This document shows, piece after piece, positions 6,365 through 32,721 of a DNA stretch of 64,000 bases (the first letter of the stretch is position 1; the number at the start of each line of letters is the position of its first letter). Under the pieces are notes generated by a model. The model made no database searches and was not told the DNA's origin. It saw nothing but the letters and a program-made list of their open reading frames with translations. Location: the NCBI GenBank assembly GCA_965248535.1, contig CBDFJR010000005.1, forward strand, positions 1,664,001 through 1,728,000, written 5' to 3'. The position numbers were made by a program, and so were the translations under genes. The DNA is from Phormidesmis sp. (lineage in GTDB: Bacteria > Cyanobacteriota > Cyanobacteriia > Leptolyngbyales > Leptolyngbyaceae).

Positions 6365-7173
6365 CGGCTCCCGATCGAGCTGACTAATGGCTCAAATACG
6401 GGCAACAAATCCGGTCGGCTGACCACTAAGGTCGGAAACGATCGCTGACTATAATTCTGTCCGATTTGGATGGGAAAGATCGGATCGGGTTCGAGAGGAT
6501 GCCAGACTGCGCCTGCTGCTTGCACGATCGCCCAGACTGCCGCGATATCCCAAATTTTTGGGGTGGCTTCGACTCCTCCCAGGGTTGCCCCAGCCGCAAC
6601 GGTCAAAAAACTATAGGTCGTCACTCCCAACATCCGAATCTTGGCAGGAATAGGATTTTTAAGCACTGAGATACTTCGAGCGCACACATTAAAGAAGTGA
6701 TTGCTCGTCAATGGATCTTGACTGGCGTGAATGGGCTTGCGATCAAGAAAGGCTCCGGTGGGCATCTCTAAACCGGATGAGCCTTGCCAAAACCCATGAA
6801 AGGATTGCCGCAATGGGGGAAAATGCACATATCCAAAGACCGGAGTGCCCTGATAGAGCAAGCCAAGCGAGATGCCCCAAAGCGGCAGACCTCTCGCAAA
6901 ATTGTTCGTGCCATCTAAGGGATCGACGACCCAACACCAATCTTGAGCGGGCAAAATATGTTCGGTTTCTTCCGTCAGAACGCCGTGAGCGGGGAAGGTG
7001 TGAGCGATCGCATCTCGTAGTTCCTGATCGGCCCAATGATCAGATTTAGTCACTAAACTCCCATCTGATTTTTCAGACGCTTTTGCCTGCCCATAATCCT
7101 GGAGAAGTTGTGCGCCGACTCGCTCAGTGGTCGTTTGAGTGAAGTCAAGGATTTCTGTCCAAAAGTCAGTCAT
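6361..7173 (-). CDS. Inositol monophosphatase family protein
   Basis: WVVDPLDGTNNF and WDIAA motifs. Confidence 0.9.
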   Translation of the reverse strand: MTDFWTEILDFTQTTTERVGAQLLQDYGQAKASEKSDGSLVTKSDHWADQELRDAIAHTFPAHGVLTEETEHILPAQDWCWVVDPLDGTNNFARGLPLWGISLGLLYQGTPVFGYVHFPPLRQSFHGFWQGSSGLEMPTGAFLDRKPIHASQDPLTSNHFFNVCARSISVLKNPIPAKIRMLGVTTYSFLTVAAGATLGGVEATPKIWDIAAVWAIVQAAGAVWHPLEPDPIFPIQIGQNYSQRSFPTLVVSRPDLLPVFEPLVSSIGSR

Positions 7174-7187
7174 TTACAAAGTCCACA

Positions 7188-8609
7188 TTAATCAAGTTCG
7201 GTTTCAAGGACGGCAGCGATCGCTGTTTCAGAGCTAGTTTTAAATTCTTGGACGTTGACTCGCGCCAGCAAGATCACCGCCAAGATCATACCCACTGCTT
7301 CACAAGCAAACACCAGGCTATAGGCCGGAAAGGGTTGTTGAAACAGCCGCCGACCCAAGTCAAGAATTGCGCCGCCTGCCAGGGTTGCGCTGGCTTGAGC
7401 TAAGGCTTGAGAGAGTCCCCAAGCGCCGACAAAGGTGCCTGCGGTTTCGGCAGCGGTGAGATCCAACATGAGACTGACGGCACTGTTGGTCATCACGCCC
7501 GACGCTAAACCAAACAAAACCACCGCACTTTTGAGCAAAATTTGGGTTTGGGTCGCGCCAGAAATAATCACTAACACAAAGCAAGCACTCGTGAACAGAC
7601 AGCCTAGTGCTGCCGTGCGCTGCTTGCCGAGGCGAGGCACAATCAAAAATCCACCGAGGCTCATTCCGGCGAGAACTCCATATCCCCAATATTTGTTGAG
7701 TCCGGCGCTTTCGGCGATCGTCATCCCAAACACTTCGCGAGCATAAGGCTCTAACACAGGCTGCTGTAGAAATAAACTAATCGTCATCACCAGCAAAAAC
7801 GTGAAAAAGATTCCCGTCTGGCGGCTGGCAGTCAGAACTTTAAAGGCTCTGCCTAAAGTAATTTGATCTTCTCGCTCGACCAGATGCGATCGCAAAGCAT
7901 AGCGAGAATATTTTTTCTCAATCCCAAACGTTGCCAGAAATGTGAGACCAATGACGGCGATCGGAAAAACTGTAAACAGACGATTTATGACAGGCTGCAA
8001 CGTGTTGGGGGTCAATCCGGTGAGCATTTTTTGCCCTACGATCGCGCCGATCACAATTCCCACCATCAGCATTGACCAGACAATGCCAACGACCTTCGAT
8101 CGCTGATCCTCGTCGGTGATATCCACCAGCAGCGCCATAAACGGAGTTGAACTCGCGCTGATGCACAGCCCATACATCCCAAACATCAAAGCGAGTAGTG
8201 CAGTCCAAGCTGTGCTTTGAGCCGTCCAGCCCAGAGCAGCGCTGGCACCGAGTTTCCAGACCACCTGCACCGCTAAAAATAGACAGATCGCCTGAAGCGT
8301 CATGCCGATCCAGACATAGCCCGTGCGATGATAGCCTCGAATCGGCTTTGAGTCAGACATCTGCCCAAACCAGATGCGAGCCGGAGACACAAATTGATAC
8401 ATGGCGATCGTGCCCGCAGCGATCGTGGCTGGCACCTTGAGTTCTGAGATCATCACCTGGTTAAGAACGCCCAGCGTCAGCAGTGACAACATCCCCAACC
8501 CCATCTGAAACAAGCCCAGCCGAAACATCGTGAATAAGCCCAGTTTAGGCAGAGACTTGACCTGCTCAGACGGCATCAAAGGTGGATCGGGAAAATCACG
8601 AGTCGTCAT
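7188..8609 (-). CDS. BCD-family (PucC-like) MFS transporter
   Basis: About 12 hydrophobic helices; FRLGLFQMGLG and LEPYAREVFGM. Confidence 0.85.
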   Translation of the reverse strand: MTTRDFPDPPLMPSEQVKSLPKLGLFTMFRLGLFQMGLGMLSLLTLGVLNQVMISELKVPATIAAGTIAMYQFVSPARIWFGQMSDSKPIRGYHRTGYVWIGMTLQAICLFLAVQVVWKLGASAALGWTAQSTAWTALLALMFGMYGLCISASSTPFMALLVDITDEDQRSKVVGIVWSMLMVGIVIGAIVGQKMLTGLTPNTLQPVINRLFTVFPIAVIGLTFLATFGIEKKYSRYALRSHLVEREDQITLGRAFKVLTASRQTGIFFTFLLVMTISLFLQQPVLEPYAREVFGMTIAESAGLNKYWGYGVLAGMSLGGFLIVPRLGKQRTAALGCLFTSACFVLVIISGATQTQILLKSAVVLFGLASGVMTNSAVSLMLDLTAAETAGTFVGAWGLSQALAQASATLAGGAILDLGRRLFQQPFPAYSLVFACEAVGMILAVILLARVNVQEFKTSSETAIAAVLETELD

Positions 8610-25979: not shown

Positions 25980-26453
25980 TTATTGCACGATCGCTTTCCA
26001 CACTAGCCCGATCACAAAAACGCTTAAAGCTGCAATGCTAACAACTAACAATAAAAATCCGAACAGCAATAGCAGTACAAATCCTTGGTCAGCTTTTTTC
26101 TGATGTTGGGGTGAATCGAGATGCGCTTCTAACAATCGCACATTTTTGCTGTTGGCTTTCCAGGTGACATCTAACAAATCTCCGGCAACCGGAACAGAAC
26201 CCGCTACTGTGTCGAAGACTAAATTAGACACCATCCGCGTCACGGTCGATCGGGGCAACCCCAGTCGAGCCGCTTCCCACACAATGTAGACCGAAAACGC
26301 CGCCATGACTAAATCTCCGCCACCGGGAAGCAAGCCCACGATCGGGTCAATTCCGACTCTAAACGAGGTGCCAGGAATGGCGATCGCGTTGTCTAAAAGA
26401 TGAGCCAGCGATCGTAGTCGTTGCAGTGAAGCCGCTTTAGAATCGGGTTGCAT
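25980..26453 (-). CDS. DUF4112 family membrane protein
   Basis: LLDNAIAIPGTSFRVGIDPIVGLLPGGGD. Confidence 0.9.
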   Translation of the reverse strand: MQPDSKAASLQRLRSLAHLLDNAIAIPGTSFRVGIDPIVGLLPGGGDLVMAAFSVYIVWEAARLGLPRSTVTRMVSNLVFDTVAGSVPVAGDLLDVTWKANSKNVRLLEAHLDSPQHQKKADQGFVLLLLFGFLLLVVSIAALSVFVIGLVWKAIVQ

Positions 26454-26616
26454 AGATGCTCAAAAAACAAGTCGCTCTCAGCATAGAGGAAGTTAGAGCG
26501 ATCGGGCAGTTTGATATTAGAATCTATCCCTGAATTGCATTATTTACTTGATTTAGACCTGCTCTGAAAATCCATCTTCAAAGCAGATCTATTGACGACT
26601 CCCTAACCCCAACTCC

Positions 26617-26988
26617 CTACAGTTGAATGGTTGTTTTGTTGGATACCTCCTCTACTTGAATTAACGAACCACTACCCAGAACAATGTTGAACTTCATTAA
26701 AGAACGTTCAACCTGATAACCAGGCAACACTCGAACAATCTGATACTCTGTGGTCAAATCACTCGTGCCATCCCACTTGAGAAACGCCAGTTGATTAGAC
26801 GCAATCTCACTCAGTTCTGAGACGAACTCTTCAATGCTATCGCTAACATTCACGAGAATGCCAGACGGCACAAAGAGATAACGCTCTTGTAAATCCAAAA
26901 CCACACTCACCCGATAACGCTTTTCGATTGAGCATCGCAACTCAACCGTAAACGAAATCGAGCTAGGCACGATCGTCCTAACTGCCAT
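26617..26988 (-). CDS. Hypothetical protein, 123 aa
   Basis: ORF with a GAGG RBS upstream; no recognisable motif. Confidence 0.65.
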   Translation of the reverse strand: MAVRTIVPSSISFTVELRCSIEKRYRVSVVLDLQERYLFVPSGILVNVSDSIEEFVSELSEIASNQLAFLKWDGTSDLTTEYQIVRVLPGYQVERSLMKFNIVLGSGSLIQVEEVSNKTTIQL

Positions 26989-27028
26989 AGTTTTTGTCCT
27001 CTTAGTTAAGTTAAAGAGGACAAAAACT
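26989..27028 (-). promoter_or_regulatory. Perfect 15-bp hairpin occluding the RBS of the 26988 gene
   Basis: AGTTTTTGTCCTCTT-N10-AAGAGGACAAAAACT directly abuts the ATG. Confidence 0.7.
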
Positions 27029-27106
27029 CTGATGGCTCAGAAATTCGGTTGGGGTGAAACCTGTATGCAGGATCTTGATTCCAGCCTTTCAAGATCCCAT
27101 AGCAAA

Positions 27107-27240
27107 GCCGACGGTGTACAATCATGAACGCCTCCTGAGTTACTGACTCTAACTAGGGATGGAAGACCTCGGAGTCTGATTTGGACGATCAGGCTTCGGG
27201 GCACAACTCCATCACTGCGGTGTATTCTACAGGAGTTTTT
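27107..27240 (-). ncRNA. 6S RNA (SsrS/SsaA)-like structured element with the 5' closing strand absent or degenerate
   Basis: Nested stems CTCCTG/CAGGAG, GATGGA/TCCATC and a 14-bp inner stem; minus-strand motifs CACCGCA..GATGGAG..TCTTCCATCCCTAG..CAGTAAC..GGCGTTCA..CACCGTCGG resemble cyanobacterial 6S RNA as I recall it. Confidence 0.5.
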
Positions 27241-27441
27241 TGATTTTTGGAATAGTGAGGTTTTTGGGGGAGGGAAGCGATCGGGTTTTGGGGAAGAGAG
27301 GGGAGCGATCGTAAATTCTCCCTGATTTATGTTCCAGTCGAGCAACGGCAGGGATGCGATCGACTCAGCGCCATGACTGATTCATCGGGACGAGACAATT
27401 TACTTTTGGCTCCCTTAGAATCGAAAAACCTGAGTGCCATT

Positions 27442-27560
27442 CCGTATAATTACCCGAAAGTGGAGAGTTATCCTGTGAGAATTCAGGATGATTCCTAAAA
27501 AAATGGGAGTTATCCGGTTTCCATACGGCATAATTTCTCTGAGAGAGGCATTTATCCTGT
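27442..27560. repeat. Three imperfect palindromic units with a 42-bp period
   Basis: TTATCC at 27468, 27510 and 27552; unit 2 is CAGGATGATTCC...GGAGTTATCCGG. Confidence 0.7.
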
Positions 27561-28347
27561 TTGATAGGAGTTCAAACGGCAGAAATAGTTAGACCGTTAT
27601 GCACACCATTTGATGCAGTATCTCCGACAAGCATAATTTGCTCAATTCGGATATTTCTTCGATCACGAGTTGCTTGACTGCAAAGCCTAGAGTTGAACCA
27701 ACCGAACATTCCTCAACGGCATCTCACTTTCTATTGAGCAAACGGAAGGATTCAACTTGTAAAGGTCAGTGGTGAACTTGGCTGGCAAGAGCAGTCATAA
27801 ATTTGAAAGAAGCATTCGCAAAGCTGATGTGACAGCGATCGCTACGCCGACTTATCATTTGGTCAAATTACGCATTTGTAGCTTATAACTTGTCCAAGCA
27901 AAGATACTTCAGAAAATTTCTTAGAGAAGTGACCAAATTTATTCCTATTAAGGAATTAACGTAGGTGACGGGTCGCATAGGATTTCTGAAAGCGGTGCTC
28001 CGTCAGTTACAACTTTAGCGCGAATGCCGAGTTCTTCGATTTATCTGTGGCTTATTGAGATGGCTGAGTTCCTGTGCTTAATAATGAATTGGCAATGAAA
28101 CTCTGGCGAAGCTTGCGAAGCATAGATGCGGTTGATGGTTTGTCGAGCAACGCATAACAAAACCCCAATGCGTTAGAGCCGGAGACCGATGCGAGAGGGT
28201 TTCAATTACGAGCGTTATTGCTAAAATTTTCACTACTTTCATCTCCAATTGACTTCTCAGTCGAAAACAGTAATCTTGGATTAAGAGGGGAGCTTAGAGA
28301 TAATATGTCGCCGCTAACCTTTGGTACACTCTTGAACTATCTGTTAG

Positions 28348-28689
28348 TTGCCGCCAGCCCGAGATACTTTAGTTGATATAATCAATTACTTCGGTCTTTT
28401 AGAGCGCTTTTATCTTAATTACCAGTCAAGCATGAACAGCTTTTAGACAACGCTCAATCCGAAACGGGAAGATGTAATCAACGGTGCAGCAGACATAATC
28501 GAAATTGCAACTCAAGATCAGAGACTCAGAACGGTTTTCAATTCCATCTATAATTTTGAATTAAGTTGCCATTTCATCCATACGCACATTGTAAGAGAGA
28601 ATTTTATGATTGATAGTCGTAGTTCGCGCCGACTTATCTATGCTTACGACGGGTCGATGAGATTTATGACAAGTGCGTCCTCAAGTTGA
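28348..28689 (+). pseudogene. Decayed cassette ORF
   Basis: One frame reads LPPARDTLVDIINYFGLLERFYLNYQSSMNSF*TTLNPKREDVINGAADIIEIATQ...SSS* with an internal TAG. Confidence 0.4.
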
Positions 28690-28985
28690 GGAAGGCAATC
28701 ACAGGCACCGATCGTGGCGAGATCATTGAAACCGGAATTGACGATAGATGGTGGCAGTCTTCGTTGATGCTCAGCCTTGGGTGATTCGGTGGGAGGTGAC
28801 AGGTAGCCGCAGCTTGAGGAAGCTTCCGCAATGAGGATTTAAATCCGTCCGCGAATCGCCGAGTTCTTCTATCCTTCTTTCATCATTATGAGATGCACTT
28901 GGCTTTGGCATTCTGCTGACTGTCGAAGCGTTGGGCGCGAAGCGAGGGTTCGGTTGAACTGTACAAAGACGAGCAACGCAGAACA

Positions 28986-29091
28986 AGATAACAACCCGAT
29001 TGGATGGCGGCTTCACTGTTGAGTCAGTTGATCTGGGTCGAGGCTGCAAAAATCAGACGGTTTACAAAGCCGCTCAATCGGAACGTTAGGT
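28986..29091 (+). repeat. attC-like site
   Basis: AGATAAC-AACCCG-ATTGGA..GCGGC...GCCGCTCAAT-CGGAAC-GTTAGGT. Confidence 0.75.
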
Positions 29092-29181
29092 CGCTTGTCT
29101 TCTTACTAAGGCATTCAATGAGGCTATGCATAGCTCTGCCATTTCATTTTCAAAGTTGACGTTTAGATAGGTGCAGGGTCT

Positions 29182-29706
29182 ATGAGATGTCCTAAGTGTG
29201 GTTATGATAATTCGCCTGAAGGTACACAGGATGGTAAATGTGACGAGTGCGGGCATCCTCTGTTTGCTGAAGGTGAGAGTTTAAGTCCTCAAACTAATGA
29301 TTCAATCGGCGACAGCATAGTTAGTGCTTCCACTGGTAAGCGAATTGTTAATTTTATCGGAGATCTAATGATTTCTAGATTTATCGTAGTGGCACTATAT
29401 ATGGTTCCCGCTAATTCAGGGGGCATAAGTTCTTCAGTAAAAGAGCCGGGTGGAAATTTTTTGTTCAATATTCTCATATTATTTTTGTATTATTTCTTAT
29501 GTGAAGCAAGATTTCAACGGACACCAGTGAAATTTATTACGCGGACAAAAGTCGTTATGAAAGATGGTTCAAAGCCTAGTGAAGGTTCAATAGCGTTAAG
29601 AACACTCATCAGGTTTGTGCCATTCATAATCTTTTCCATGTCTTCCTACGGGACTTGGTGGCATGATCAATGGACAAATACCCGTGTGGTAGACAGTAAA
29701 GGATAG
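29182..29706 (+). CDS. RDD-family membrane protein with N-terminal zinc ribbon (cassette gene)
   Basis: CPKC...CDECG; ASTGKRIVNFIGD, RTLIRFVP and WHDQWTNTRVV. Confidence 0.85.
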   Translation: MRCPKCGYDNSPEGTQDGKCDECGHPLFAEGESLSPQTNDSIGDSIVSASTGKRIVNFIGDLMISRFIVVALYMVPANSGGISSSVKEPGGNFLFNILILFLYYFLCEARFQRTPVKFITRTKVVMKDGSKPSEGSIALRTLIRFVPFIIFSMSSYGTWWHDQWTNTRVVDSKG

Positions 29707-29757
29707 GAAAACGGATTGGTGTAAAGTTGAGAGTCCTGGTCTGAGTATGTTGTCGCG

Positions 29758-29843
29758 GTCTGACAACCGCACTGCACCGGAATGTATGATACGGTCGGTT
29801 AATTGCAAAGGTAATCTGCATCCGGTGAGCGCGAACGTTATGC
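29758..29843 (+). repeat. attC-like site (R'' core reads GAC instead of AAC)
   Basis: GTCTGAC-AACCGC-ACTGCACCGGA...TCCGGTGAGC-GCGAAC-GTTATGC. Confidence 0.75.
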
Positions 29844-29910
29844 CGCTTATATCGTCCAGGGGCATTGCTGATTTCCAAAATCTAGAAAATTATTAGCAGG
29901 AGAAGAGTTC

Positions 29911-30147
29911 ATGTCATCTTTCAAGCTTGAATCTATGAAAAATGGGGATAACTTGTCCTTAACTAGCACAATGATGTATCCAGGAGTCACAGATCTTCAT
30001 GTTCACAAACACGAAAAAGGTCTGACGCTTACCATGGTGTACAAAGGTGAGAAGGAACACCTTCCACTTGATAGATACATGCCAGCAGCAGAGTCTAAAG
30101 AAACTGTTGACCATATGTACAAGAAACTTCAACAAAAGTACGGCTAA
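29911..30147 (+). CDS. Hypothetical cassette protein, 78 aa
   Basis: AGGAG RBS; first ORF after the attC-like site. Confidence 0.7.
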   Translation: MSSFKLESMKNGDNLSLTSTMMYPGVTDLHVHKHEKGLTLTMVYKGEKEHLPLDRYMPAAESKETVDHMYKKLQQKYG

Positions 30148-30282
30148 GTTCTTTTTTCATTCCAAGACTTGGAGAGGTGTGATCGCCCTATCAAGAGTAA
30201 TTGCCCCTCTAACAATCGTTCACCAAACTTTAGATTTGCTCAAAATCAAATCGGTGTAGCCAGTGGTACAATCATACCCATT

Positions 30283-31065
30283 ATGTATGACGATACCTGC
30301 CGATTCCTTGCCGAGCACTTCTCCGCCGACTTTGCCAGTTGGCTGCTGGGAAAATCTGTCACCTTGACAGAACTTCAGCCCTCCGAACTCTCCCTTGACC
30401 CAATTCGCGCCGATGCCCTGATTTTCCTAGAGTCGGACGAAGAAACTTTGCATATCGAGTTTCAAACGCTTCCCAAAGATAATATTCCATTCCGTATTCT
30501 AGATTATCGTGTGCGAGGCTACCGGAGAGATCCGACTAAACCGATGCGCCAAATTGTAATTTATCTGAAGCAGACTGCATCGCCGTTGGTTTATCAAACC
30601 AGTTTTACAATGGAGCGCACCTGCCATGAGTTTGAGGTGATTCGCTTGTGGGAGCAGCCTGCATCACTCTTTCTAGAATATCCTGGACTGATTCCTTTTG
30701 CGGCTTTAGGGCAAAGTGCAGATGCAGAGGAAACGCTACGCCAAGCCGCTCAAAGAGTGGATCAGATCACTGATCCCCAAATTCAAGCGAATCTGATGGC
30801 GGCATCCGGGATTTTAGCTGGGTTAAAATTAGAACAGGAAGTAATTTATCGTTTATTGCGGAGGGACATCATGCAAGAATCCACTGTTTATCGTTCGATC
30901 CTGGCAGAAGGTGAGACAAAAGGCGAAGAAAAAAAACAGCGAGAGATTGCCACTAATTTTTTACGAGATGGTTTATCGGTCGAAACTGTTGCCCGTGGTA
31001 CAGGGTTATCGATCGAGGAAGTTCAACAGCTTCAGCAGCAATTGAACGAGTCTCCGCAAAATTAG
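30283..31065 (+). CDS. Rpn-family recombination-promoting nuclease/putative transposase (PD-(D/E)XK)
   Basis: MYDDTCRFLAE, IRADALIFL, HIEFQT, MQESTVY..I..EG and C-terminal IATNFL..GLS.E.VA..TGLS. Confidence 0.9.
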   Translation: MYDDTCRFLAEHFSADFASWLLGKSVTLTELQPSELSLDPIRADALIFLESDEETLHIEFQTLPKDNIPFRILDYRVRGYRRDPTKPMRQIVIYLKQTASPLVYQTSFTMERTCHEFEVIRLWEQPASLFLEYPGLIPFAALGQSADAEETLRQAAQRVDQITDPQIQANLMAASGILAGLKLEQEVIYRLLRRDIMQESTVYRSILAEGETKGEEKKQREIATNFLRDGLSVETVARGTGLSIEEVQQLQQQLNESPQN

Positions 31066-31086
31066 GGCTGGTCGGTGTAGTGAGCG

Positions 31087-31173
31087 GCATAACAACCCGA
31101 TTGGAGCGGATCGACAAAGTTAGTTGGTCATGTGGCAAAAAATACTCGCAGCCGCTCAATCGGAACGTTATTT
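31087..31173 (+). repeat. attC-like site
   Basis: GCATAAC-AACCCG-ATTGGAGCGG...CCGCTCAAT-CGGAAC-GTTATTT with one extrahelical base. Confidence 0.8.
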
Positions 31174-31464
31174 GTAGAGCAACCACAAATCGCAAAGTGG
31201 GCAGTTTAATTTGATGTTAGATTGCAATACTACGCAGAGAAAACTGATTGATGGCAGGGTTGCATCGAAGCTACAGAAGTATATAACTTTAGCTATCTGT
31301 GGCTATTGATAGTTGGCGATCGCTCAGAAGATTGATCAAAAAGCTTATGGTCTCAGGTTTAGTCCAACTGTTAGTGATCGCCCGTGCCTTGATTGCTGCA
31401 CGCACTCTTTAGTGCGATCGCTCCACACCCGCTAGAATTAAGTCTCTATCGGTTTTAAAAGTCT

Positions 31465-32721
31465 TTGTTATCTCAACCGTTAAAAGTCGTCGTGATTGGC
31501 GGAGGAGCGGCGGGCTTCTTTGGCGCGATCGCCTGTGCTCAAACCAACCGCAGCGCTGACGTGACCCTGCTCGAAGCGAGTCGTCAACCGCTCACCAAAG
31601 TGCTCGTGTCGGGGGGCGGACGCTGCAATGTCACCCACGCCTGTTTTGATCCAGCAATTCTGGTGCAGAACTATCCCAGAGGGGGAAAAGCGCTGCGGGG
31701 TGCCTTTAGTCAGTTTCAGGCAAAAGATACGGTCGAGTGGTTTACGGCACGCAACGTGAAGCTGAAAACTGAGGCAGACGGGCGAATGTTTCCGATTACT
31801 GACAATTCTGCCACGATCGCTCATTGTCTCATTCAACAAGCGCAGGATGCTGGAATCAACGTTTGTCTGGGAGCCAGCGTTAAATCTGTGATTAAAAAAG
31901 ACAACGCTTTTGAGATTGAGTTGCGATCGGGCGACATTCTCACCGCCGATCGCTTGTTAATCGCGACGGGCAACAGTCCCCAAGGGTATCAGATTGCTAG
32001 AGAGTTGGGGCACACGATCGAGCCGACTGCCCCGTCTTTGTTCACCTTTAATGTCAGCGACGATCGCTTAGAAGATCTGTCGGGTATTGCTGTCGATCCG
32101 GTGCGGTTGAGGTTGCAGGTTGGCGACACCAAGTTAGAGCAAACTGGGGCGCTGTTGGTGACACACTGGGGTTTGAGCGGCCCTGCGGTGTTGAAGCTGT
32201 CGGCGTGGGGTGCTAGGGTTTTGCACGAACAGCGCTATCAAGCTACGTTAGTAATTAACTGGTTGCCTAAACAAAATCCAGAAGCCCTACGACAAGAATT
32301 GTTGGCAGTCAAATCGCAGTTGCCGAGACGAGCGATCGCCTCCAGTTGTCCCGTGCTGTTGCCTCGTCGGTTGTGGGAAAAACTCACGACTACAGTAGGG
32401 ATTCAAAAAGAAACTCGTTGGGCAGAGCTTTCAAATAAAACGCTCAATCTGCTGATTCAAGAACTGACCCAGGGCAAATATCGCATCAATGGCAAAGGGG
32501 TATTTAAAGAAGAGTTTGTCACCTGTGGCGGCGTAAATCTTAAAGAAGTCGATTTCAAAACGATGGAGAGTCGCTGCTGTTTAGGACTATATTTGGCGGG
32601 CGAAGTGTTAGACATTGATGGAGTCACAGGCGGGTTCAACTTTCAGAGCGCTTGGACGACGGGCTATATTGCAGGGCAAGCGATCGGTAAGCCCCTTTTA
32701 ACAGAACTCGCAGACCAATGA
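31465..32721 (+). CDS. HI0933/YhiN-family flavoprotein oxidoreductase
   Basis: GGGAAG, SGGGRCNVT and GGFNFQSAWTTG. Confidence 0.92.
   Translation: MLSQPLKVVVIGGGAAGFFGAIACAQTNRSADVTLLEASRQPLTKVLVSGGGRCNVTHACFDPAILVQNYPRGGKALRGAFSQFQAKDTVEWFTARNVKLKTEADGRMFPITDNSATIAHCLIQQAQDAGINVCLGASVKSVIKKDNAFEIELRSGDILTADRLLIATGNSPQGYQIARELGHTIEPTAPSLFTFNVSDDRLEDLSGIAVDPVRLRLQVGDTKLEQTGALLVTHWGLSGPAVLKLSAWGARVLHEQRYQATLVINWLPKQNPEALRQELLAVKSQLPRRAIASSCPVLLPRRLWEKLTTTVGIQKETRWAELSNKTLNLLIQELTQGKYRINGKGVFKEEFVTCGGVNLKEVDFKTMESRCCLGLYLAGEVLDIDGVTGGFNFQSAWTTGYIAGQAIGKPLLTELADQ

Follow-up and report, generated by a model that had tools for sequence, protein, structure and literature searches.

Clusters of attC sites that have no integron integrase (CALIN) were defined by Cury et al. 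(2016; PMC4889954), who also report integrons in Cyanobacteria; in the sections of that paper on which we draw, loss of the integrase gene (intI) figures among the origins of CALINs, excision of their cassettes by an integrase encoded elsewhere is suggested, and C-terminal intI pseudogene remnants are recorded near only 15 of 279 CALINs. The proposed origins are restated in the relevant part of a later review (PMC8618304). With respect to site recognition, attI is described as being recognised only by the cognate integrase whereas attC sites are shared (PMC2095811, as far as the passages drawn on here go). Furthermore, Ghaly et al. (2021) present, in the portion cited here, a Cyanobacteria-specific attC covariance model and thereby a recognisable taxon-specific class of sites (PMC8352920). 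Against this background we analysed an array of attC sites in a 64,000-nucleotide stretch of the chromosome of Phormidesmis sp. (contig C5:1664001-1728000; hereafter the window, to which all plain coordinates refer). An initial annotation, made from the letters alone, had taken it for an integron-like cassette array with atypical attC spacing and no integrase nearby, and had suggested a lineage-specific cassette system mobilised in trans.

We conclude, at a probability that we put at about 0.78, that 26590-31173 is a chromosomal integron minus its integrase gene, namely a platform followed by four cassettes, which constitutes a CALIN and whose cassettes are likely excised in trans by a distant IntI. 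The four cassettes are delimited by three intact attC sites and one decayed site (Table 1). The three intact sites (E <= 2.9e-7) lie within 2.2 kb on the + strand, and no integron integrase is encoded nearby, both matches of the genome to the integron integrase model TIGR02249 being on contig C2 and the window on C5. The array is not a complete integron, the intI frame having been deleted between 27253 and 27329.

Table 1. Components of the array and the two integron integrases encoded elsewhere in the genome (window coordinates unless a contig is named).
Feature	Position	Strand	Description
Repeat X1	26590..27253	-	Conserved 3' flank of integron integrase gene; 17-18 genome copies
orf123	26617..26988	-	123-aa gene in X1, no family assigned
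Junction	27254..27328		75 bp occupying the place of the ~930 bp intI in G004:C1009
intI stub	27329..27386	-	First 19 codons, with in-frame stop
attI-type region (repeat X2)	27387..27595	+	Ends in the G|TTAGACC junction at 27588
Cassette 1	27596..28220	+	Opens with R' box GTTATGC; closes with decayed attC 28152-28220
Cassette 2	28214..29091	+	90-nt conserved motif 28647-28736; closes with attC 28986-29091
Cassette 3	29085..29843	+	Open reading frame 29182-29706 (174 aa); closes with attC 29758-29843
Cassette 4	29837..31173	+	orf78 29911-30147 and Rpn-family gene 30169-31065; closes with attC 31087-31173
Unique tail	31174..31426		Between the last attC and the resumed homology to relatives
IntI-A	C2:161487-162425		Intact integron integrase
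IntI-B	C2:1131581-1132513		Intact integron integrase

Comparison with described integrons

As in the CALINs of Cury et al. (PMC4889954, in the sections cited), the genome is rich in replicons, also contains complete integrons, and the cassettes of the array are mostly of unknown function. Unlike the CALINs described there, the array in the window has an origin that can be read from an N-terminal intI stub and both flanks of the lost gene, and the same integrase-less head occurs many times per genome. The parts of the literature on the Vibrio cholerae superintegron and its repeats (VCR) that we consulted (PMC2727003, PMC5027507) indicate further parallels: a chromosomal location, a homogeneous attC family, long and variable terminal structures, extrahelical bases on the R''-L'' arm, a bottom-strand G after AAC, and mostly unknown genes. 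In contrast to the superintegron, there is no integrase at the array, and the genome has many small arrays rather than one large one. As with the class of Ghaly et al. (PMC8352920, as described in the portion cited), the family of sites captured by our attC covariance model R1 recurs across relatives (40 of 41 genomes).

Given that integrons and a taxon-specific attC class are already on record in the phylum, the array itself is ordinary. Its interest lies rather in being a clean, dated example of how a CALIN originates, in which the integrase flanks and a stub survive and a relative keeps the intact gene, and in pointing to a genus where the integron platform is multi-copy. In a limited literature search, which did not extend to supplements, we met no account of an integrase-less platform that is present in many copies and accompanied downstream by a conserved gene. 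Should IntI-A and IntI-B serve all the arrays, the genus would be a natural test bed for the trans-mobilisation of CALIN cassettes, which has been proposed but rarely shown.

The platform and its lost integrase

In a blastn search of 26000-31700 against its own genome, 26584-27589 emerged as a repeat (X): it matches 18 loci at 81-94% identity, and attC sites lie downstream on the same strand in 12 of them. One copy of its left part, X1 (window 26590-27282), stops two bases from the stop codon of IntI-B, at C2:1131579. Moreover, in a same-genus contig of 1488 bp (G004:C1009, locus L025) both parts of X flank an intact integrase gene: X1 (L025:1-293; window 26962-27253, 87%) lies directly 3' of intI (L025:325-1281, minus strand; 439.9 bits, 55% identical to IntI-B), and X2 (L025:1225-1481; window 27329-27587, 73%) directly 5' of it. 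The order of elements is X1-intI-X2 in that contig and X1-75 bp-stub-X2 in the window, where homology to L025 breaks at 27253 (L025:293) and restarts at 27329 (L025:1225). When aligned at the nucleotide level to L025:1225-1281, the minus strand of the window reads MNQSWR*VDRIPAVARLEH, versus MNQPLRLVDQIRAVARLEH in the intact G004 integrase; the stub is visible only in this nucleotide alignment to G004:C1009, a tblastn search of window 26400-27700 with IntI-B having returned nothing below E 1.7.

Because the X1 flank, the stub and X2 match the surroundings of the intact intI of G004:C1009, the array is an integron lacking its integrase, which was deleted from codon 20 to the stop. The absence of an integrase, which the initial annotation had recorded, is explained by what the locus retains: the intI 3' flank, the 19-codon 5' stub and an attI-type site. 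The deletion is not confined to this locus. There are ~18 integrase-less platforms of the X kind in the genome, and the X of G003:C1 (78% identical over 987 nt) lacks the integrase in the same way; most platform copies in the genus share a single integrase deletion, while their neighbouring gene is intact and their cassettes differ. A different intI deletion is seen in G002:C37, where a 45-residue C-terminal remnant is left.

The right part, X2, has 9 genome copies. All of them end in ...GGCAGAAATAGTAG|TTA, and their continuations differ once the fifth base past the G is reached (GGT, CAC, GCT, GCC, TAC, GAC, GAC and TGC); the window copy is 3 nt shorter and reads AATAG|TTAGACC before GTTATGC at 27596. 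Since in all nine copies a conserved site is followed by different DNA from G|TT onward, X2 is an attI-type site. Within it the words GTTATCC/TTTATCC occur at 27467, 27509 and 27551, spaced 42 nt apart and kept in the G004 contig; they are candidate integrase-binding repeats. A promoter scan of 26400-31500 found 13 sites versus 8.6 +/- 3.0 in shuffles, with no enrichment, and the promoter candidates in the attI region (27421-27450 and 27561-27589) are leads only. At the left end of X, just past the orf123 stop codon, at least 7 of 17 copies (e.g., G000:C2:1130860-1130910) have a hairpin, GTTAGGGAG-(~22 nt)-CTCCCTAAC, which could be a terminator or the end of a mobile unit; the window copy, truncated at 26590, retains its right half only.

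The attC sites

The three palindromic sites at 28986-29091, 29758-29843 and 31087-31173 (86-106 nt) are where the initial annotation had placed them and carry the boxes that it had assigned, as inspection of the sequence, a structural scan and covariance model scores all bear out. The 31087 site reads GCATAAC-AAC-CCGATT-G-GAGCGG-A ... CCGCTC-AATCGG-AAC-GTTATTT; the 28986 site follows the same pattern with an additional TG, and the 29758 site reads GTCTGAC-AAC-CGCACT-G-CACCGG-A ... CCGGTG-AGCGCG-AAC-GTTATGC. With regard to the inverse core sites (R'' RYYYAAC, R' GTTRRRY), R' has GTT in all three intact sites and R'' has AAC in two. The complementarity of each cassette's R' box to the R'' box of its own downstream site had also been read correctly (7/7, 5/7, 4/7 and 7/7); GCATAAC/GTTATGC is, however, the commonest box among the genome's sites, so that perfect R'/R'' matches count for little by themselves.

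Ten attC-like sites from elsewhere in the genome, three of them adjoining integron integrases, served to build a covariance model (R2), which was run with filters off over both strands of all 64 kb; the related model R1 includes the window sites, so that its scores for them are high by construction. R2 assigned 73.3 bits to the 31087 site, 58.0 to the 29758 site and 36.1 to the 28986 site (E 4.9e-17, 5.2e-13 and 2.9e-7), which are exactly its best + strand matches in the window, the next one having 13 bits (E 0.33). The strand asymmetry is real: the 31087 site scores 86 bits on the + strand versus 22 bits on the - strand.

The ten outside sites and the three from the window were combined in alignment A1, whose 13 members were picked by motif likeness, a choice that inflates pairing but not covariation. 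RNAalifold on A1 pairs the L box, with compensatory changes in 11 of 15 pairs. For the full structure of R and L boxes, 86.4% of the 286 pair cells of the 13 sites are standard, versus 72.7 +/- 1.6% in shuffles, none of which attains the real figure in 500 trials, and 24.8-38.3% with slid partners; in 14 of 22 pairs changes occur on both sides, i.e., the palindrome is kept in structure and not in sequence. All three intact sites retain both extrahelical bases, the intervening 6-bp stem and full L-box pairing. The initial annotation had noticed the unmatched G present in each intact site and the further TG of 28986, and overlooked the second conserved unmatched base, an A (bottom-strand T) 6 bp further in (A1 columns 30 and 37). 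Thus, the extrahelical bases stand on the R''-L'' arm, separated by a 6-bp stem, and the last one is a bottom-strand T.

Several short words recur around these sites. The exact 18-mer CCGCTCAATCGGAACGTT has 3 genome copies, two in the window and one 1.5 kb from IntI-B. The 11-mer GTCGAGCAACG is found at 27337-27347, inside the intI stub, and at 28142-28152, with a one-mismatch copy at 28968-28978; the second and third of these copies form the left flank of two attC sites, and the flank CAAGCAACGCATAAC is common to other attC sites.

Spacer geometry

In the part of PMC5027507 relied on here, the attC spacer is said to have "usually five to six bases". Of the extrahelical bases described there, the first occupies position 16 and is usually a bottom-strand G, whereas position 23 or 24 has the last, a conserved T (see also PMC2727003); IntI1 requires a 6-bp stem between the two. 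Among the 40 attC sites counted in the genome, 32 have an unmatched G at position 17 (or at 17/18 within GG), followed by 6 bp and an unmatched A, which is a bottom-strand T at 24. The first extrahelical base is accordingly a bottom-strand C (top G) at position 17 and not the usual G at 16; as the published rule says "usually", this is a variant and does not exclude the sites from attC. The remaining architecture is canonical, including the bottom-strand G after AAC. With classical box borders the central spacer has 6 nt per arm, of which the inner 3 nt pair, leaving only AAC opposite AAC unpaired.

The claim of the initial annotation that the spacer has 6 nt rather than 5 thus contains a real observation, a one-base shift of the first extrahelical base, which also has the complementary letter; the shifted spacing is nevertheless a variant inside the published range of five to six bases and not outside it. 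Nor is this geometry special to the window array, since R1-type sites are present in 40 of the 41 related genomes, in 17 families of the class and at up to 78 per genome. The same distribution, together with the fact that this attC family flanks bona fide integrases in the genome itself, leaves the notion of a lineage-specific cassette system unsupported.

For comparison with class 1/3 cassettes we used the blaGES-5 and aacA4 attC sites of the class 3 integron plasmid LC735978.1. The sites share R'' RYYYAAC, R' GTTRRRY and two unmatched left-arm bases 6 bp apart, the second being a top-strand A. The plasmid sites differ in having a fully unpaired 5-nt spacer followed by 3 bp and an unmatched C at position 16, after which come, in the blaGES-5 site, 6 bp and an unmatched A; the aacA4 site was read only up to the 6 bp. 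With R1 the blaGES-5 and aacA4 sites rank first and second in that locus, but they score no more than 14.4 and 9.1 bits. Sedentary chromosomal integrons, as covered by the portions of the literature cited above, likewise differ from the sites described here, in which the first extrahelical base is at 17, not 16, and only 3 nt per arm are unpaired.

Integrases and attC sites across the genome

A genome-wide search for an IntI-like integrase, which the initial annotation had recommended, was productive: two frames on C2, without stops, exceed the TIGR02249 cut-off of 265 bits with 467.9 and 466 bits, covering model positions 1-313 and 4-314 of 315. The cut-off is exceeded in 0 of 14 control genomes and in 24 of 41 related genomes. 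IntI-A and IntI-B are 68% identical at the protein level; IntI-B shares 54% identity with the class 3 integrase IntI3 and 68% with a plasmid-encoded integrase of Kovacikia minuta. The G004-type integrase, which matches the attI of the window, is 55-57% identical to both. In agreement with the initial annotation, the window has no tyrosine recombinase, none of the genome's six PF00589 matches falling inside it.

In a scan of the genome with R1, in which 150 of 986 candidates were scored, there were at least 50 matches at E <= 1 and at least 40 at E ~1e-3 or below on the array strand; 13 of the 40 attC sites counted were seeds of the model. Of these 40 sites, 30 lie at most 12 kb downstream of an X copy, 2 are beside IntI-A and 8 are elsewhere; as for sites that follow the integrases, five follow IntI-B and two follow IntI-A.

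About 180 bp up to the attI junction GTTATGCCGC are identical in integrons A and B (G000:C2:1132760-1132945 and C2:161060-161245), which, in view of the 68% identity of the integrases, suggests recent conversion or exchange of the attI region. In seven of the 40 attC sites, none of them in the window, the R'' box is replaced by ...GGGCGTACAC|AAC (G000:C2:1133905, 1136848, 1672925 and 156765; C5:45598, 793548 and 932945). In integron B the GGGCGTACAC end corresponds to a group II intron's 5' end, the intron lying on the opposite strand; two Rfam families each matched the introns there twice (L029:3936-4308 and 6879-7251, minus), RF02001 with 127.8 bits and RF01998 with 63.7 bits.

The empty site and signs of mobility

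The interval between the DUF4112 and HI0933 genes, which the initial annotation had proposed to compare in relatives, is indeed informative. In G003 and G006 these genes are ~140 bp apart and the site is empty: homology to the window ends at 26486 and returns at 31423-31427, and R1 finds nothing better than E 0.25 at the empty loci. Some 4.9 kb, comprising X, the cassettes and a 250-bp tail, are therefore present in the window and missing from both. The tail (31174-31426) gave no second copy in a blastn search of its own genome, and past it homology to G002, G003, G006 and G007 picks up again at 31415-31427. G001, G002 and G007 are uninformative as to an empty site, other DNA and no DUF4112 homologue being found within ~1.7-11 kb upstream of HI0933. 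An imperfect direct repeat (26503-26523 / 31197-31222, GGGCAGTTT..GATRTTAGAWT) flanks the 4.9 kb and is similar to what stands at the empty site in G003 and G006. We rejected a 9-mer flanking repeat as a mark of insertion, since repeats at least as long occur in 27 of 110 mismatched control pairs and nothing consistent was seen in 10 other arrays; only its gapped extension and the likeness to the empty site speak for the repeat.

Cassettes are shared between arrays of the genome, the first cassette of integron B being also the first cassette of two X-headed arrays. A second sign of exchange comes from two public sequencing runs of one study, available as contigs only and labelled here runs X1 and X2 (distinct from the repeats X1 and X2). 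Their contigs are identical to the window over 26465-26674, 29763-30345 and 30399-31577. A 774-nt contig of run X1 and a 721-nt contig of run X2 cover 28991 onward, and every listed difference from the window falls at 29005-29083, inside the attC arm; from the R' box at 29084 onward the contigs match the window throughout, apart from a single change at 29652 in run X1. This pattern is as would be expected if cassette 3 sits behind a different cassette in that sample. At 27608-28612 neither run gives cover, a gap that proves nothing in contig data. The joints recorded in these data were set aside, their sides being shorter than 30 letters or stemming from multi-copy depth, and among the public runs listed for the stretch there was none of RNA.

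The gene orf123

Where the intact integron integrases of the genus can be assessed, orf123 accompanies them: in 5 of 6 cases it lies ~300-340 bp downstream of a complete intI on the same strand (G000 integron B, G002:C58, G002:C38, G003:C123 and G006:C13), the exception being G000 integron A; two further G004 intI genes are at contig ends and fall outside these six. The gene is found in all 8 genomes of the genus (4-21 matches each) and in none of the 33 other relatives searched. In the genome it is intact in 15 of 17 copies, and comparison with the window copy gives 321 codon changes that are synonymous and 147 that are not, a ratio that points to purifying selection.

No Pfam or NCBIfam family matched orf123. 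It has 413 near relatives, which are "hypothetical proteins" in Phormidesmis records where named, and a phmmer search of the whole library returned only 14 clusters. Its structure was predicted with a mean confidence score (pLDDT) of 88; with this model Foldseek found no match in the PDB at E <= 0.001, and the best of the 48,161 chains compared by VIA-align reached a Z of 4.7, short of what the tool regards as meaningful. Residues 65-119 match eight repeated stretches of the 2642-aa protein P0128, and residues 19-100 match five stretches of the 394-aa protein P0134; the C-terminal half of orf123 may thus be a domain that also occurs as tandem repeats.

Conceivably, the integrase-less heads are no debris but form a maintained, distributed cassette bank of 4-21 platforms per genome, each with cassettes of its own, served in trans by one or two master integrases; orf123 would then act as an integron accessory factor, and the platform itself could move into further places on the chromosome. 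We offer this wider scheme tentatively and think that it probably claims too much.

Mobilisation in trans and competing interpretations

The preferred reading, an integron that has lost its integrase and whose cassettes are still excised from afar, implies the following mechanism. The platform comprises the 3' flank with orf123, the stub of 19 intI codons and the attI-type site, at whose end G|TT stands. The bottom (minus) strand of each attC is predicted to fold into a hairpin of R box, central spacer and L box with two extrahelical bases, and an integron integrase would cut the folded hairpin at G|TT. IntI-A and IntI-B would excise the window cassettes by attC x attC recombination, and the excised cassettes would be reinserted at the attI of integron A or B rather than captured here, because attI needs its cognate integrase whereas attC is shared; new insertion at the window's own attI would need a cognate integrase of the G004 type. 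The proposal of mobilisation in trans made in the initial annotation has gained candidate integrases on C2, and mobilisation itself is plausible.

Several observations weigh against an array that is still served in this way, and most of them are what would be seen if it were an inert relic, one that no longer recombines, on which the distant integrases do not act and for which only decay lies ahead. The site that the initial annotation had listed as degenerate (28152-28220) can be recognised by eye in its left half only, GCATAAC and CCCCAATGC; its scores, 8.1 and 8.6 bits over 28142-28228 (E 6.1 and 4.7; 8.6 bits with R2), are not significant, and in folding its bottom strand does not surpass shuffled sequences (z +0.53). 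The bottom strands of the three intact sites have modest folding-energy z scores of -2.1, -1.7 and -1.4, and the R'' box of the 29758 site has GAC in place of AAC. Neither cassette 1, which has no open reading frame of at least 60 aa in six-frame translation or the list of reading frames, nor cassette 2, whose translation shows no credible one, appears to encode a protein, and two such cassettes out of four, together with a decayed site, are what is expected of an ageing array. A cognate integrase of the G004 type was not found in the genome, both of its IntI being of the other kind. Rfam at gathering thresholds matched nothing in the window, although it may hold no attC family. Furthermore, the variant contig of the public runs begins at 28991, so that its placement at the window locus is not established, and no excision or circle was seen in those runs, whose contigs cannot reveal rare events.

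In spite of these signs of age, we consider an inert relic rather improbable. The three intact sites have kept the extrahelical bases, the 6-bp stem and the full pairing of the L box; in another sample the attC arm to which cassette 3 is joined is a different one, the change-over falling at the R' box; and orf123 is intact and apparently under purifying selection in nearly all platforms (15 of 17).

Capture of the cassettes one by one at an attG-type site by a remote integrase, with no platform ever present here, is a proposed route to CALINs (PMC4889954, in the sections cited; 10.1101/2022.09.11.507474, likewise drawn on in part), and the genome does encode distant integrases. It is very improbable for the window array, in which the stub, the intI 3' flank and the attI-type region keep the order seen about the intact intI of G004:C1009 and whose head also precedes the attC sites of the other X loci that have them (12 of 18 in all). 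The last interpretation, that the palindromes are REP-like (repetitive extragenic palindrome) repeats or terminators mimicking attC, could appeal to the Rfam result and to a crude AAC...GTT palindrome scan, unspecific in that it gave 47 genome matches versus 67 for a CAA...TTG control and discarded in favour of the covariance models after missing the window sites at its threshold, but is reduced to a negligible chance by the strand asymmetry of the scores, the conserved asymmetric unmatched bases, the arrays beside integron integrases, the group II intron 5' ends that 7 of the 40 sites have at R'', a feature familiar from attC-homing introns, and the lack of any terminator-like site in 26400-31500.

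Cassette contents

The integron that we take to have lost its integrase carries recognisable genes in its last two cassettes. The 174-aa protein of cassette 3 combines a zinc-ribbon-like N-terminus with an RDD family domain (PF06271, E 2.6e-9, 37.9 bits). In cassette 4, the 78-aa product of orf78 belongs to no family, and the second gene encodes an Rpn-family recombination-promoting nuclease/putative transposase (TIGR01784, 72.9 bits; cut-off 52.1), relatives of which adjoin intI remnants or attC sites in G018:C93, G006:C13 and G002:C105. The 90-nt motif of cassette 2 has no usable reading frame. Copies of it, at 77-86% identity, stand at 13 places in 7 of 40 relatives and, in the genome itself, also at C5:200975 and C5:1397216; the motif may represent a small repeat, an RNA or part of a gene.

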